Below are positions 3,072 to 59,028 of a stretch of 64,000 nucleotides of DNA, one piece after another. Made by a program: the position numbers and the translations under genes. The stretch lies in NCBI GenBank assembly GCA_015061685.1, contig SUWD01000011.1:4980-68979 (forward strand). Reading direction: 5' to 3'. Source of the DNA: Lentisphaerota bacterium. Its GTDB lineage: Bacteria > Verrucomicrobiota > Lentisphaeria > Victivallales > Victivallaceae. How positions within the stretch are numbered: position 1 is the first letter of the stretch; every line of letters starts with the position of its first letter. The notes beneath the pieces were generated by a model, which was not told where the DNA came from, searched no databases, and saw only the letters and a list, made by a program, of their open reading frames with translations.

Positions 3072-4073
3072 ATGGCCGTGACTTTAAAAGATATCGCCGC
3101 CATGGTTGGCGTTTCAGTAAATACCGTTTCGCGTGCATTGAAAGATAAGCCGGACATCGGGCAAAAGACCTGCAGCCGGATCAAGGAAGCCGCCGCTGTC
3201 CTCGGCTATCGTCCTAACCTGAATGCCCGCAGTCTGGTGCTGAAAAAGACATTCACCATCGGCATCCTCGTTACCGAACCGGACAATCCAGTGCGGATCG
3301 AATTCTGCGAACGCCTCCGGGGTTATGCGGCAAACGACAATTACCGGTTGTTGAATATTTCATTGAGTTCTGATTGGCAAAAAAATGTGGAAGCTGTGGA
3401 AGATCTGCTCGCCCGCCGGGTGGATGCTCTGGTGATCGGTTATCTGTGGGGATTGATAAGTGAACAGGCCATCGGCCCGATCCTGCAGGAATGCCGGCAG
3501 GAGGGGATCCCGGTCGTGGTTTTCGGCGATCCGAAAACCGAACTTGCCGACTGCATCGAAATCGATTTCCGTGACAGTGCATTTCAGCTGACCTCCCACG
3601 CTATCCGACGCGGTTGCCGCGACATCGCCCTCTTTGTCCCGCCTGCCGAATTCGCCCGGGTGGAAGGTTACCGTCAGGCTATGATCGAACATGGACTTGA
3701 TGACCACATCAACGTGTGGCCATTGCACGGTTCCGGTTTTGCCGGTGCCGCCGCCTCATTGGAATCCTATCTGGATAAATTCCAAAAACCTCCCCGGTGC
3801 ATCATCGGATTCAATGACATCAGTGCCATCGGCATTATTTCGGCATTAAAAAAGCACGGTTACCGGGTTCCGGAAGATTGTGCGGTCGCCGGGGTTGATA
3901 ATATTTCCTACGGAGAACATTACGATCCGTCGCTTACTTCGATCGGTTTCGACAATGGCTATTTCGCTGAAACCGTCTGGAATCTGCTGAAAAAACGTAT
4001 GAATAAAACCGAAACCGGTCCAGCGAAACATTTGAAACTCCACCAGAAATTAGTTATCCGTCAATCGTGTTAA
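3072..4073 (+). CDS. LacI family transcriptional regulator
   Basis: N-terminal HTH VTLKDIAAMVGVSVNTVSRALKD, followed by a periplasmic-binding-protein-like sugar-binding fold. 333 aa. Confidence 0.9.
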   Translation: MAVTLKDIAAMVGVSVNTVSRALKDKPDIGQKTCSRIKEAAAVLGYRPNLNARSLVLKKTFTIGILVTEPDNPVRIEFCERLRGYAANDNYRLLNISLSSDWQKNVEAVEDLLARRVDALVIGYLWGLISEQAIGPILQECRQEGIPVVVFGDPKTELADCIEIDFRDSAFQLTSHAIRRGCRDIALFVPPAEFARVEGYRQAMIEHGLDDHINVWPLHGSGFAGAAASLESYLDKFQKPPRCIIGFNDISAIGIISALKKHGYRVPEDCAVAGVDNISYGEHYDPSLTSIGFDNGYFAETVWNLLKKRMNKTETGPAKHLKLHQKLVIRQSC

Positions 4074-39390: not shown

Positions 39391-39975
39391 TTATTTGTCA
39401 TCTGAATTTTTGGCAGGGAAGCAAACGAGGATAAAAATACCATTCATGGTGAAAACCAGACCGAAACCGAAAAAGAGCAAAGCGGCGATGACGACGCCAT
39501 TGACCAGCGGTTTGTGTTCGGTGAATTGGGCATGGATGCAGGTCATTGCTTCGGCATTGGCATTCAGAAGCTTCTGGGAAGTGGTAATGGACTGGGTCAT
39601 GCCCTGCGTGGTATCATTGATAGCCTTGATATTCTCCTGAATGAACTCCCGGAAGTCGATCACATACTGGCTGTAATCGCCGAGATATTTTTCCAGAACA
39701 GCAGGCATATTGGGGATTTTTTTACCGAGCTTGTTGAGGGATTCAGACTGTTTGGCGAGGGCTTGCGAGGTCAATTCAGAGGTTTTCAGAGCTGAATTCA
39801 TGGTGTTTGCAGTCTGCTGTGAAAGTTCTGCGGTGTGCTGCAGAGTCTGTTCCAAAGAAGCTTGGGTTTGTTTACAGCGGGGCAGGGTAAAGAGCAGGAC
39901 AACTCCGATGACGATCATCAAAGTACCGAGGGTGAATTGGGCGATTATCATGCCGTTGCGGAATTTGCGGTTCAT
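39391..39975 (-). CDS. hypothetical membrane protein with central coiled-coil-like Q/T/S-rich segment
   Basis: I chose the ATG at 39975, which is preceded by AGGAG. The longer 268-aa track ORF extends into the repeat element and is not credible. There are two terminal TM helices. Confidence 0.65.
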   Translation of the reverse strand: MNRKFRNGMIIAQFTLGTLMIVIGVVLLFTLPRCKQTQASLEQTLQHTAELSQQTANTMNSALKTSELTSQALAKQSESLNKLGKKIPNMPAVLEKYLGDYSQYVIDFREFIQENIKAINDTTQGMTQSITTSQKLLNANAEAMTCIHAQFTEHKPLVNGVVIAALLFFGFGLVFTMNGIFILVCFPAKNSDDK

Positions 39976-40088
39976 TTCAAGTCTCCTTTTTTGAAGTGGT
40001 TGTATAATATATTTTATACCGGCTGATTTAATATACCACCGCTTATCCCACATGCAAAATACGTTAACGAAAAAAGTTGTTTTTTTTT

Positions 40089-40642
40089 GATAATGTCCCA
40101 AATTTTGTGAAACCCGTAACAGGAGCTTATAAACAAACATTTTTGTTAACGTATAAAACATATCACATAAGTTGTGATTTGTCAACCCGGCAAACACGGG
40201 TTCGATGCGACCGGCTTGTCAGGGCGTAGCTTTATGCGGAGACTGATGGATGCAGTGTGAGGCAAGGTCGCGGGCAAATCAAGGCGGATTAGCAGGATCC
40301 GTCTTCGTTCCACTACGCCGGGACAAGGTGTACTATCCGTACATGACTGAACATAAAATCAAAGACTGCCTTACTCGCAGTCATGAGTACGGCATAAGCC
40401 GCACGGAATGGCGGAGAGCGAGGAGTGGCAACGGTAACGTTGCCACGGACAGCGTAAGCGAGGCCTCCGGAAAATCGACTGCAACCGCCGAGGGCGAAGC
40501 CCGAGCGGCGAGGCCGCTCTCCCGCGGCCGCAGGGAGATTTTTTGGAGAAGAAAGAGATTGCCCGCAATGCACCGCCGCCTTGTCACGGCGTAGTGCAAC
40601 GGAGACGGAAGGAAAGATTTCTCACAAAAAATAAGACAATAA
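40089..40642. mobile_element. non-autonomous MITE-like element, long copy (554 bp)
   Basis: It shares about 94-95% identical 5' (about 126 nt) and 3' (about 55 nt) parts plus internal blocks with 58718-58999. It is flanked by T8 direct repeats (40081-40088 and 40643-40650). The ends are imperfect inverted repeats. There is no conserved ORF. Confidence 0.7.
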
Positions 40643-40760
40643 TTTTTTTTAAAGCTGACGACAATCCGGTTTGAAAATATCAGGCTTTAATGCTATAGTA
40701 GGAGAAATGCCGTAAAAGGTGTATTTTTATGTATTTTCAGCAGAAGAAAGAGGTTGTTCC

Positions 40761-49937: not shown

Positions 49938-50627
49938 TTACCGCCGTGTTACTTTGCAGTTTTTCGGGAAAGCATCTTCTCCGACAGTGCAGTTCCGGGG
50001 GATGCTGACACTGGTCAAGCCGCCGCCGAAAAGCGTAAGAAATGCTCTGTCTCCAATGGAAGTAACACTGTCCGGGATGATAACACTGGTCAGATTGACA
50101 CATCCGTAAAACGCCCACTCCCCGATGGAAGTAACACTGTCCGGGATGGTAACACTGGTCAGATTGACGCATCCGGAAAACGCCCAGTTATCGATTTTTG
50201 TGACACAGGAGGGAATGGTTACTGAACTGATCTCTTTATTGGAACAGGAATCCAGAGTTTTGTTGTCTTTGCTGAAAGTTATCCCCTGTTCTTTGGCAGT
50301 TTTCAGTTCTTTCCGTTCATTGTAATTTGAAATGGCAAACGGCAGAATAATTCCCAGCACAATCAGAAAAGCGATACATGCTCCGGCAATGATCCATACT
50401 TTTGGGTTGTTTTTTCCGGTCTGTTGCGGGGACGGGACAGCCGGATTGCCGCAGGGATTATTATAAACTCCCGGTGTCGGCGGAGGAGGTGGCTGGATCG
50501 GGAGCGGGTTTGTGCCGCAAACAAATTTTTGCTGACACAAAGGACATTGCAATTCGATTCCGCTGTACCGGTTGTCAAAAGAAAGTTGTCCCTGACAATG
50601 AGGACAATAGATCATCTGTTCCGCCAT
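49938..50627 (-). CDS. zinc-ribbon / transmembrane / BspA-type leucine-rich-repeat protein
   Basis: N-terminal CPHCQG...CPLCQ ribbon, then a Pro-rich linker, one TM helix and 23-residue repeats of the form SVTIPDSVTSIGEWAFxGCxNLT. Confidence 0.75.
   Translation of the reverse strand: MAEQMIYCPHCQGQLSFDNRYSGIELQCPLCQQKFVCGTNPLPIQPPPPPTPGVYNNPCGNPAVPSPQQTGKNNPKVWIIAGACIAFLIVLGIILPFAISNYNERKELKTAKEQGITFSKDNKTLDSCSNKEISSVTIPSCVTKIDNWAFSGCVNLTSVTIPDSVTSIGEWAFYGCVNLTSVIIPDSVTSIGDRAFLTLFGGGLTSVSIPRNCTVGEDAFPKNCKVTRR
50056..50193. repeat. two tandem 69-bp units (about 90% identical) encoding LRR modules
   Basis: ATGGAAGTAACACTGTCCGGGATG(A/G)TAACACTGGTCAGATTGAC... occurs at 50056 and again at 50125. 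The period is 69 bp, or 23 codons. Confidence 0.8.
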
Positions 50628-57058: not shown

Positions 57059-58711
57059 ATGGCAGATTTTATTTTGATGCCCCAGATGGGTGTTTCCGAG
57101 GAAAGTGCGTTGCTTTCCGAGTGGAAAGTCAAAGAGGGAGATGTTATCAAACTCGAACAGCCGATTTTCGGACTTGAGACCGGCAAATCCTCCTTTGAAG
57201 AACTGGCGAAGTATGAAGGTACTTTGCTGAAGATCCTCGTTCCCGCCGGTGAAGAAGTTGCCGTCGGTGCCCCGGTTGCTGTTATCGGTAAACCCGGTGA
57301 ATCTTATGAACTTCCCGGTGCCGCCGGTGCTGCAGCCCCTGCCGCTGCCCCTGCTGCCGAAGCTGCTCCGGCACCTGCCGCTGCCCCCGCCGCCGCTCCT
57401 GCCGCCGCTGCTTGCGACAACAAGGATGTGAATTTCATTCTGATGCCCCAGATGGGTGTTTCCGAGGAGAGTGCGTTGCTTTCCGAGTGGAAAGTCAAAG
57501 AGGGCGATGTCATCAAACTTGAACAGCCGATTTTCGGACTTGAAACCGGTAAATCCTCCTTTGAAGAACTGGCGAAGTACGAAGGTACTCTGCTGAAGAT
57601 CCTCGTTCCCGCCGGTGAAGAAGTTGCCGTCGGTGCCCCGGTTGCTGTTATCGGTAAACCCGGTGCTGTTTTCTCTGTTCCCGGTGCCGCCGCACCTGCC
57701 GCTCCCGCCGCTCCGGCTCCGGCTGCCGAAGTTGCCGCCGCTCCGGTTGCTGCTGCTCCTGCTGCCGCCGCCCCGGCTGCTGCCGGTGCTGAAGTTCTTG
57801 CTTCACCCCGTGCCAAAAAACTTGCCGCTGAATTGGGTCTGGACATTTCCAAAGCCATTCCGACCGGTCCGGAAAGCCGCATTATTGAGCGTGATGTGAA
57901 AACTTTGAAAGCCACCGCCCCGGCTGCCGCCGCTGCTCCTGCTGCCGAAGTTGCCGCCGCCGCTGTTGCTGAAACTGCTCCGGCAGTTGCCGCCGCAGCC
58001 GAAGTTGCAGCCGCTCCGGAATACACCGAGGAAAAAATCTCCCGCATCCGCAAAGTTATCGCCGATAACATGCACAAATCTCTGGCGGATATGGCACAGC
58101 TTACCCTCAACCGTACTTTCGATGCCACTGCGATCCTTGAGATGCGCAAGCAGATGAAAAACGCTCCGGAACTGGGTCTGGACAAAGTTACCATCAACGA
58201 CCTCGTTCTCTTTGCCGTTGCCAAAACTCTGGTTGAATTCCCCGACATCAATGCCAACTTCATCGGAGACAAGATGCGTCGTTTCACCCACGCCCAGCTC
58301 GGTGTGGCGATCGACACTCCCAAAGGTCTGCTGGTTCCGGTACTGCGTGATGCCGACACCATGAGCCTCAAGGCGATCTCCGCCAAAGTCAAAGAGTATG
58401 CAAATGCCTGCAAAGACGGTTCACTTGGAGCTGACAAACTTTCCGGCGGCAGTTTCACTGTCACCAACCTGGGCAATCTTGGTATTGAGAGCTTCACTCC
58501 GATCATCAATCCGCCCCAGACAGCCATCCTCGGTGTTTGCGGTACGACGCTCCGTCCCCGTCAGAAAGCCGATGGTTCTGTTGAATTCTATCAGGCAATG
58601 GGCTTGTCACTGACCTTTGACCACCGAGTGGTTGACGGTGCTCCGGCGGCGAAATTCCTCAAAGCTGTTGCTGACAAACTTGAGAAATTCAATTTGATTC
58701 TTGCACTTTAA
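57059..58711 (+). CDS. dihydrolipoamide acyltransferase (E2) with two lipoyl domains
   Basis: Two lipoyl domains, each with the ETGKSS lipoyl-lysine context, separated by Ala/Pro linkers. It also has a PSBD (ASPRAKKLAAELGLD) and a catalytic domain with DHRVVDGA. Confidence 0.92.
   Translation: MADFILMPQMGVSEESALLSEWKVKEGDVIKLEQPIFGLETGKSSFEELAKYEGTLLKILVPAGEEVAVGAPVAVIGKPGESYELPGAAGAAAPAAAPAAEAAPAPAAAPAAAPAAAACDNKDVNFILMPQMGVSEESALLSEWKVKEGDVIKLEQPIFGLETGKSSFEELAKYEGTLLKILVPAGEEVAVGAPVAVIGKPGAVFSVPGAAAPAAPAAPAPAAEVAAAPVAAAPAAAAPAAAGAEVLASPRAKKLAAELGLDISKAIPTGPESRIIERDVKTLKATAPAAAAAPAAEVAAAAVAETAPAVAAAAEVAAAPEYTEEKISRIRKVIADNMHKSLADMAQLTLNRTFDATAILEMRKQMKNAPELGLDKVTINDLVLFAVAKTLVEFPDINANFIGDKMRRFTHAQLGVAIDTPKGLLVPVLRDADTMSLKAISAKVKEYANACKDGSLGADKLSGGSFTVTNLGNLGIESFTPIINPPQTAILGVCGTTLRPRQKADGSVEFYQAMGLSLTFDHRVVDGAPAAKFLKAVADKLEKFNLILAL
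57075..57665. repeat. in-frame tandem duplication of the lipoyl-domain coding segment (225-bp copies at 57075-57299 and 57441-57665, offset 366 bp)
   Basis: The two 225-bp segments differ at 8 positions, and all 8 changes are synonymous by my alignment. The encoded 75 residues are identical. Confidence 0.85.
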
Positions 58712-58717
58712 TCAATA

Positions 58718-58999
58718 GATAACGTCCCAAATTTTGTGAAACCCGTAACAGGAGCTTATAAACAAACATTTTTGTTAACGAGTGAAACATATCACATAAG
58801 TTGTGATTTGTCAATCCGGCAAGCACGGGTTCGATCCAACCGGTGGATGCAGTGTGAGGCAAGGTCGCAGGCATTTCAAGGCGGATGAGCAGGAGAGTAC
58901 TGAACGTACATGACTGCGAAAACGTCCGCAGATTTGCCGGGAAATTGCCCGCAATGCACCGCCGCAGGAAAGATTTTTCACAAAAAATGAGACAATAAC
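58718..58999. mobile_element. non-autonomous MITE-like element, short copy (282 bp)
   Basis: It is homologous to 40089-40642. It is flanked by the exact 8-bp direct repeat AATCAATA (58710-58717 and 59000-59007). The terminal 24 nt are imperfect inverted repeats (18/24). It lies between the E2 stop and the lpdA start. Confidence 0.75.
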
Positions 59000-59028
59000 A
59001 ATCAATAAACATACACAGGTGAATTATC

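Follow-up and report, generated by a model that had tools for sequence, protein, structure and literature searches.

The bcr1 element of the Bacillus cereus group is a repeat of ~155 bp resembling miniature inverted-repeat transposable elements (MITEs), in which compensatory changes keep the RNA fold; this fold has decayed in some copies (PMC3184786). ERIC, or IRU, is an imperfect palindrome of ~127 bp that occupies intergenic, co-transcribed positions and acts or is constrained at the RNA level (PMC3184786). Among the BOX elements of Streptococcus pneumoniae, one contains riboswitch-type (T-box) motifs (PMC3184786) and is thus an earlier example of a structured RNA module within a repeat. For the Lentisphaerae, a limited literature search returned a single RNA motif, Acido-Lenti-1 (RF01687; PMC2864571). 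Here we describe an interspersed repeat from this phylum, found twice in a stretch of 64,000 nt of a Victivallaceae genome (contig SUWD01000011.1, positions 4,980 to 68,979), hereafter the window. A preliminary description, made from the letters alone, had compared the longer copy (copy A, 40089-40642 of the window) with the shorter one (copy B, 58718-58998), and had proposed that the additional blocks of copy A behave like RNA helices.

We estimate a probability of about three in four that 40089-40642 represents a single insertion of a MITE, a non-autonomous transposable element of ~280 nt, found in gut Victivallaceae. Transposition is established by the target-site duplications: perfect 8-bp duplications flank nine out of nine complete elements (from the window and five metagenome-assembled genomes, MAGs; at least 6 genomes), and all of them are different (TTTTTTTT, AATCAATA, ATTTTTTG, CATCCATA, AAATAAAA, AATTTTTT, GATGAATA, AAGGAGTT and TGAAAAAA). 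Around copy A, the left duplication TTTTTTTT (40081-40088) equals the T8 run on the right (40643-40650) and is assigned by analogy with the nine complete elements. Copy B, the canonical MITE, covers 58718-58999 on the + strand (58710-59007 with its duplications) and lies within the E2-lpdA operon, between the two genes; its exact 8-bp duplication, AATCAATA, occupies 58710-58717 and 59000-59007. At an unoccupied site, the uninterrupted E2-lpdA junction is expected to read ...CTTTAATCAATAAACATACAC... The ends are imperfect terminal inverted repeats of ~24 nt (GATAAYGTCCCAAATTTTGTGAAA on the left versus TTTCACAAAAAATGAGACAATAAC on the right), with the end motif G(G/A/T)TAATGTCCCAAATTTTGTGAAA; 18 of the 24 positions agree in copy B. 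The same terminal repeats close both ends of the element in five other loci (L021, L023, L025, L028 and L029). Given these repeats and the 8-bp duplications, the element is presumably moved by a transposase supplied in trans.

Scanning species-representative genomes with a conserved 21-mer of the core retrieved 18 loci, all in gut Lentisphaerae/Victivallaceae MAGs, with at most six from the same MAG. Element sizes range from 163 to 554 nt, the sole open reading frame (ORF) is spurious, and the element is repeated both in the window (two copies in 64 kb) and in MAGs, which have several loci each. Metagenome contigs that are identical to the window and encode the flanking genes terminate inside both copies, as expected of assemblers at a multi-copy repeat. 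The shortest form (L023, 3819-3982) is a backbone of 163 nt with both terminal repeats and the leader, and no internal repeated unit; no clear target duplication was found at this copy. Two insertions have particular surroundings: the one at L021 (4258-4560) interrupts the loop of a hairpin that resembles a terminator (AAACGGATGATTTTTTG / AAAATCATCCGTTT), and in the one at L028 (3950-4240) the target duplication AAGGAGTT doubles the ribosome-binding site right before a start codon.

A gap-tolerant pairwise alignment of copies A and B delimits a common core of ~281 nt with ~93% identity. MAFFT misaligned the 3' half of the two copies, as well as the 3' domain of the insert discussed below, and a custom alignment or parsing was used instead. 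The alignment bears out the four extra blocks of copy A listed in the preliminary description: 40215-40246, 40298-40327, ~40350-40554, which stands in place of 27 nt of copy B, and 40580-40609. The MITE backbone itself is conserved. Its left part (40089-40214, + strand, 126 nt) is 94% identical to copy B and includes the left terminal inverted repeat (40089-40112), while its right part (40610-40642, + strand) is 94% identical to 58966-58998 of copy B and ends with the right terminal inverted repeat (~40619-40642). The left part, or leader, also contains a conserved promoter-like site on the minus strand, TTGACA-17-TG-TATGTT, directed out of the left end of the element. It is found in copy A (40185 to 40157), in copy B (58786-58814, minus) and in the short L023 copy (~3880-3915), and its spacer holds the palindrome ATCACA-N5-TGTGAT (40162-40178 in copy A). 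The site faces the gene at 39391-39975 (minus strand) in copy A; in the short copy of L023, the gene that it faces starts at a distance of 12 nt from the element. The motif GGTTCGAT in the leader had raised the idea of a tRNA or tmRNA origin, which we rejected when ARAGORN returned none.

Between the two parts of the backbone, the BLAST searches delimit the true repeated unit, which extends from TGGATGCAGTGTGAGG to GCAATGCRCCRCCG. We call it R; it is the usual cargo of the backbone. We collected 27 R units, 25 of which are 114-119 nt long; some stand in tandem, without MITE ends. The alignment of 23 standard units reveals a long imperfect hairpin with 37 predicted pairs, of which 20 show compensatory changes. 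For example, some lineages have GCCAAAUC/GAUUUGGC as one inner helix where others have GUGUUUUGC/GCAAGGCGC. Across the alignment 96.7% of the cells are paired, versus 32-43% when the partners are slid, and none of 500 shuffles matched the observed covariation. Since ~9% of the cells are G.U, the pairing holds on the + strand only. The matches of the R covariance model are confined to Victivallaceae loci, and in the window the model finds only the intact unit of copy B (~58841-58966, 124 bits, E 1e-33), because copy A is too disrupted by its insert. The window, both copies and the R-rich loci gave no Rfam 15 family at the gathering threshold, and permissive scans gave noise. R is thus a covariation-supported structured unit missing from Rfam. 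Its orientation shows a modest bias: R is on the strand of the upstream gene in 19/26 cases, among which the tandem units are not independent. One MAG, SIG92, has head-to-tail arrays of R with a period of ~126 nt and no MITE ends (L018, 5385-6293; L022, 671-3277), and R therefore spreads by tandem duplication too.

The GC-rich insert of ~200 nt in copy A is a copy of another conserved element, which we call X and which has two domains. The minimum free energy (MFE) folds have the same two-domain architecture in 20 of 20 distinct complete copies, including that of the window. The 5' domain is a 54-nt rod (CCUU.CUC...GGCAU..GU.CGGC-loop-GCCG.AC...AUGCC...GAG.GGGG), and the 3' domain is branched, with a long closing helix that pairs CCCC-GG-AAAG... 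with ...CUUU-UU-GGGG. Versions of the rod helix are GGCAU/AUGCC, GAUAU/AUAUC, GUCAU/AUGAC, GUUCC/GGAAC and GUUGU/AUAAC, and the window has GUCAU/AUGGC, with one wobble. The apical hairpin P2 is equally varied (CGGC/GCCG, CACCGC/GCGGUG, CGACGC/GCGUCG, CGGCGC/GCGCCG), and the closing helix changes in sequence between types of X, leaving the fold unchanged. Within the 5' rod 95-98% of the cells are paired, versus 31-61% with slid partners, and the helices of X covary over more than 20 distinct homologues. The model of the 5' domain has one match in the window (80.8 bits, E 2e-17), with the rod at 40369-40423. An early reading of the covarying dinucleotides as a pseudoknot was abandoned, as the MFE folds and a change from U-A to C-G in L067 favour a nested rod. 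X has no match to an Rfam 15 family in the window or in X-rich loci, in either gathering-threshold or permissive scans. Over all the Rfam scans, for R and X alike, weak matches to HgcC and RAGATH-28 did not recur and were dismissed.

The search for alignable homologues and covarying pairs proposed in the preliminary description was thus fruitful, and its general idea that GC-rich modules of copy A act like RNA helices is in part upheld: the insert X and the hairpin R covary, and, as detailed below, the 31-bp helix between 40298-40328 and 40579-40609 is found in copy A only. The Rfam scan that it also proposed gave no relevant family.

X is widespread. The scan for its head in metagenomes retrieved 31 loci with 36 copies. 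In viral contigs, a first head pattern gave no match and a second pattern revealed further copies. In L030(-) X is embedded within R, and in L020 and L030(+) it is found outside of it. X also exists without any link to R, both in distant GC-rich bacteria and in the packaging modules of phages. Some copies lie directly upstream of terminase large-subunit genes (L035, 8888-9018; L069, 1031-1160), with the terminal GGGG positioned like a ribosome-binding site, and three copies within 1.1 kb (L067, 4926-5989) lie directly downstream of a terminase small-subunit gene. In a 16S-23S spacer (L064, 462-812), one X precedes tRNA-Ala and another tRNA-Ile, each by 4-5 nt, and a copy in L052 (3230-3360) precedes tRNA-Ile-23S-5S. 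These copies must be transcribed because they are inside rRNA operons. A general link of X to tRNA genes was rejected, since tRNA neighbours occur in these two cases only. ORF calling in the GC-rich contigs proved too noisy to judge a bias in the orientation of X.

X also occurs in tandem arrays. In L053 (~96-400), it is cut after GGAAAGAT by an insertion encoding the N-terminus of an IS110-like transposase (MSNVAQKWYVGMDVS...); elements of the IS110 family target repeated sequences. Short hairpin modules, CGCCGACCGAACGTCGGCTTCGGCAGG and GGCACCCTGCCGGTCGGGGTG, accompany X in several places (L062, 590-660, minus; L036, 1900-1960; flanks of L037-L057), which suggests that mosaics similar to bacterial interspersed mosaic elements (BIMEs) exist in distant GC-rich contigs also. 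It is possible, if rather doubtful, that X represents a new functional class of structured RNA common to GC-rich gut and environmental bacteria, probably of the Planctomycetes-Verrucomicrobia-Chlamydiae group, and to phages, which the MITE would have captured and spread in Victivallaceae, with R as a second, lineage-specific one distributed in the same way. In that case, candidate roles of X would be the binding of a protein, signalling for processing, or self-cleavage.

With these modules, copy A can be read from left to right. After the leader and a first 30-nt unit (U30a, 40215-40246) comes the 5' arm of R (40247-40297, + strand), which takes up columns 12-63 in the alignment of the R family and aligns to 58844-58894 of copy B. 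An inverted 30-nt unit (U30b, 40298-40327, minus strand) interrupts R at the junction GGA|GTGTAC and is followed by the remnant of the apical hairpin of R (GTGTAC-TATCC-GTACATGACTG, helix 6; 40328-40349, + strand), which aligns to 58895-58916 of copy B. The X module (40350-40548, + strand), identified by the match to the 5' domain model and by an MFE architecture shared with 19 other copies, is made of an A-rich leader (40350-40368), the 5' rod (40369-40423), a 40-nt block (40424-40463) and the 3' branched domain, whose closing helix joins ~40466-40482 to 40532-40547. The 40-nt block lies between 6-nt direct repeats, GCGAGG (40418-40423 and 40458-40463), and is optional: it is absent in L034 and L030(-), partial in L020, and present in two database translations (P0001 and P0002). 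In copy A the inner helices of R are without their 3' strands (27 nt in copy B), and the sequence resumes with the 3' arm of the outer helix (GAGATTGCCCGCAATGCACCGCCGC, 40555-40579, + strand; 96% identity to copy B 58941-58965). A last 30-nt unit (U30c, 40580-40609, + strand) precedes the right part of the backbone.

The local motifs pointed out in the preliminary description are all where it placed them, and the family gives them a different meaning. The hairpin GGC-ATAA-GCC (40391-40400) is the conserved and covarying apical hairpin of the X rod. The 9-bp hairpin with a GTAA loop (40425-40446) and GC-GTAA-GC (40452-40459) are also present, both in the optional 40-nt block. The 8-bp stem between CATGACTG (40342-40349) and CAGTCATG (40377-40384) exists as a complementarity between R and a segment of the X rod, limited to copy A, L034, P0001 and P0002. 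TCTCCC (40518-40523), GGGAGA (40533-40538), the T6 run (40539-40544) and GGAGAG (40413-40418) are likewise in place. They had been interpreted as an intrinsic terminator with an alternative, antiterminator-like pairing, and neither interpretation is supported by the comparison. The U-run forms the 3' side of the helix that closes X: it pairs with GGAAA in every copy, and four more G-C pairs follow (GGAG in the window). The hairpin that shows a compensatory change is GGCCGC-UCUCCC-GCGGCC (GGCGGC/GCCGCC in L030), not TCTCCC/GGGAGA. A scan of the + strand for the terminator consensus found none, with a loop limit of 8 in the scan and a loop of 9 here. As for the switch, GGAGAG is invariant in the conserved rod, where it pairs with CUC, and the CUCUCC loop is found in window-type X only.

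The 30-nt units account for the most conspicuous structure of copy A. The pattern GGCGTAG-N(4-9)-CGRAGAC matches three times in the window, always in copy A, when 0.01 matches are expected by chance. U30a fits this pattern and is indeed a third, direct copy of the unit, as had been noticed; it lies on the + strand, interrupts the closing helix of R 3 nt into its 5' strand, and is found neither in copy B nor in any other R unit. U30c starts 1 nt past the same closing helix and matches the reverse complement of U30b at 27/30 positions. Together, the 31-nt segments 40298-40328 and 40579-40609 are 90% complementary, and direct reading confirms the 28 Watson-Crick pairs and one G.U pair previously counted, the two remaining positions being mismatches (C.C and G.A). 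The predicted RNA of 40200-40625 folds at -188.5 kcal/mol (z = -6.8 relative to dinucleotide shuffles), and the long helix 40298/40609 is in both the MFE and the centroid structures. The density of structure of copy A is thus far above chance, in agreement with the preliminary description.

The comparison with relatives contradicts the idea that the paired arms are gained or lost together. The site of U30b is also filled in L017 (1803-1830), in L030(-) (149-176) and, by a degenerate unit, in L016 (~1680-1709). All three have the internal unit only, and no complementary partner was found within ~500 nt of it; a 15-nt complement considered as the partner in L016 falls within coding-like sequence and matches by chance. 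Other relatives lack one or all of the units. L034 is a MITE in which X occupies the junction that it occupies in copy A, but which lacks all three 30-nt units and the 40-nt block. In the translated sibling P0001, X and the 3' arm of R run straight into the tail, with U30c missing. The existence of single-armed and arm-free relatives therefore shows that the two arms did not descend together. The same is indicated by the assembly breaks at 40434-40483 (k-1 before 40579), which point to a sibling that is identical up to ~40579 and diverges where U30c starts. U30c is closer to the reverse complement of U30b from its own copy than to the U30b of other species, which suggests that it arose by a local inverted duplication. 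The 31-bp complementarity is probably a by-product of inverted duplication; it is found in copy A alone and is not a conserved helix.

The preliminary description had favoured either a single structured non-coding RNA of ~400 nt, from ~40140 to the T6 run at 40544, in which helices come and go as units and CTCTCC, GGAGAG and GGGAGA form a switch, or nested insertions of a small palindromic repeat. The very stable fold with its long helix, the covariation of RNA type in R and X, and a plus-strand TTGTGA-17-TATAAA site that can be read in the leader would all suit a single RNA. However, its parts behave as separable modules that assort independently among copies, where they are found apart or reordered. 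The internal arm lacks a partner in three genomes, the arms cross the closing helix of R, and the insertion of X has destroyed the fold of R in copy A. Moreover, the supposed terminator is base-paired through its U-run in all X copies and continued by GGGG or GGAG pairs, and the TCTCCC loop is not kept in other types of X. We therefore regard a single RNA of this kind as quite improbable. The other suggestion fares better for the nesting, which is real, than for the nature of the unit. If the latter were a genome-wide repeat of the repetitive extragenic palindromic (REP) type, perhaps moved by a REP-associated tyrosine transposase (RAYT), the three units would be unrelated insertions. Their sharp ends, the conserved GTAG, their occurrence in both orientations, and the presence of similar units in the distant contig L062 (two copies), and possibly in L025, are compatible with this. 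Yet the 30-nt units are not palindromic in behaviour, with no significant self-fold on either strand (z from -0.85 to +1.46), and the window has none outside copy A. Throughout ~470 kb of related sequence the unit was found only inside R or beside X, the latter being the situation in L062. Besides, the same internal site is filled in four genomes, as expected from inheritance rather than from repeated insertion, and the nearest relative of U30c is the U30b of its own copy. An origin of the units by three REP-like insertions thus appears unlikely.

Two further explanations concern copy A as a whole segment. Inverted repeats matching at 28/31 positions, 250 bp apart in a divergent promoter region, are reminiscent of an inverton, in which a recombinase would flip the ~250-bp segment between U30b and U30c upstream of the GH28 operon; assemblies of several metagenomes do break in this segment. 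The positions of these breaks (40434-40483) fit a sibling diverging at 40580 and not a fork at an inverted repeat, and five out of five contigs have the orientation of the window, with none in the opposite one. No recombinase is among the listed Pfam families of the neighbours (GH28, PGA_cap, racemase, ligase, peptidase and others; CreD), and other genomes have the internal unit alone, all of which makes an inverton very unlikely. We give next to no credence to a small protein encoded by the GC-rich insert. The ORF at 40250-40594 (114 aa) is open, is predicted by gene callers and resembles predicted proteins in the database, but there are only four such matches, all of them translated sibling repeats with differing starts and ends. 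The ORF spans the junctions of modules and ends in the 3' 30-nt unit, the indels between copies (40 nt and 1 nt) are not multiples of 3, and the variation is compensatory in helices. Inspection of the alignment also led us to reject a template and variable pair of a diversity-generating retroelement, since copies A and B do not differ specifically at adenines.

We thus favour a MITE whose R unit, in the lineage of copy A, would have been broken open by further repeat modules. A 30-nt unit (U30b) would have entered the fixed internal site of R that is shared with three other genomes, and a copy of X would have taken the place of the 3' sides of its inner helices. A 40-nt hairpin block, bounded by the 6-nt duplication, would have been added within X, and two further 30-nt units, in the orientation opposite to that of U30b, would have been placed at the two edges of R. 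The order in which we list these events is itself conjectural. The modular presence and absence of the blocks among copies is observed directly, and different subsets of modules per copy are expected if the many copies recombine; we infer that such recombination reshuffled the modules. R and X would act as RNA when they are co-transcribed with their neighbours.

Several points weigh against this interpretation. In the ~470 kb of loci, no transposase gene between pairs of terminal repeats and no autonomous parent insertion sequence were found, and no empty orthologous site was retrieved. The likely promoter of the downstream GH28 gene (40671-40699) lies beyond copy A, and transcription of the + strand of copy A is a prediction. 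Strand-specific pairing would also fit single-stranded DNA. The covariation of X is concentrated in a few pairs, and much of its 5' domain is invariant, in part because the search patterns held it constant. Finally, the 31-bp helix is thermodynamically dominant in copy A and, despite its lack of conservation, could have a local effect, and two independent placements of the unit at the two edges of R seem unlikely, so a single event may be involved.

The window has other repeats. The E2 acyltransferase gene next to copy B has an internal duplication of 234 nt covering a lipoyl domain (57066-57299 and 57432-57665, 96% identity) and repeats in its Ala/Pro-rich linkers. A metagenome variant of the protein (L006, 1439-2725) has 428 aa versus 550 aa in the other form, which looks like a polymorphism in the copy number of the lipoyl domain. 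A tandem pair of 69-nt repeats with 87% identity is found at 50040-50177.

These results allow both copies of the window, and many intergenic regions of gut Victivallaceae, to be labelled as members of a MITE family with defined ends and target duplication, which also explains breaks in the assemblies of these genomes. They add two covariation-supported structured elements, R and X, that are new to Rfam. The strong conservation of X across distant hosts, in phage packaging modules and in rRNA operons makes it a concrete candidate for experiments. They also illustrate that a long and dominant helix in a single copy can arise from the shuffling of repeats, and that homologues separate such helices from conserved ones.

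How does this family compare with the described ones? The nearest functional analogue of the backbone with R is bcr1: both are interspersed, non-autonomous and flanked by short direct repeats. The hosts belong to unrelated phyla and the sequences have no similarity; the direct repeats of bcr1 are 5 bp long and its fold is a cruciform with two stem-loops, where our element has 8-bp repeats and one long rod; nested foreign modules are not known in bcr1; and bcr1 was shown to be transcribed, whereas the element described here is known from sequence. ERIC resembles R as an imperfect palindrome (~120-127 nt) in intergenic positions that are co-transcribed, for R putatively so, and R too would act or be constrained at the RNA level. 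According to Wilson and Sharp (2006), longer variants of ERIC reportedly result from insertions at fixed internal sites, which recalls the positions of U30b and X. There is no homology between the two, however, and the whole of ERIC is the palindrome, whereas R is a cargo between terminal repeats and also occurs in tandem without them. BOX elements share the modular mosaics, the variable number of modules, the lack of autonomy and a mobilisation thought to occur in trans. They differ in their modules (boxA, boxB and boxC), host and sequences, and here X is itself present in many copies. The REP sequences and BIMEs of Enterobacteria and Pseudomonas are also short extragenic units that occur in both orientations and form mosaics, and IS110-family elements target REPs, and an IS110-like element interrupts one X in L053. 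In contrast to REPs, the 30-nt unit is not a G+C-rich palindrome and is not abundant, and there was no sign of a RAYT gene. Acido-Lenti-1 is another RNA and matches neither R nor X, even in permissive Rfam scans. By analogy with bcr1, ERIC and BOX, R and X, if they do act as RNA, are likely to be folding, processing or protein-binding modules. The MITE family of the gut Victivallaceae is thus a further case of the bcr1, ERIC and BOX kind, in a little-studied phylum.

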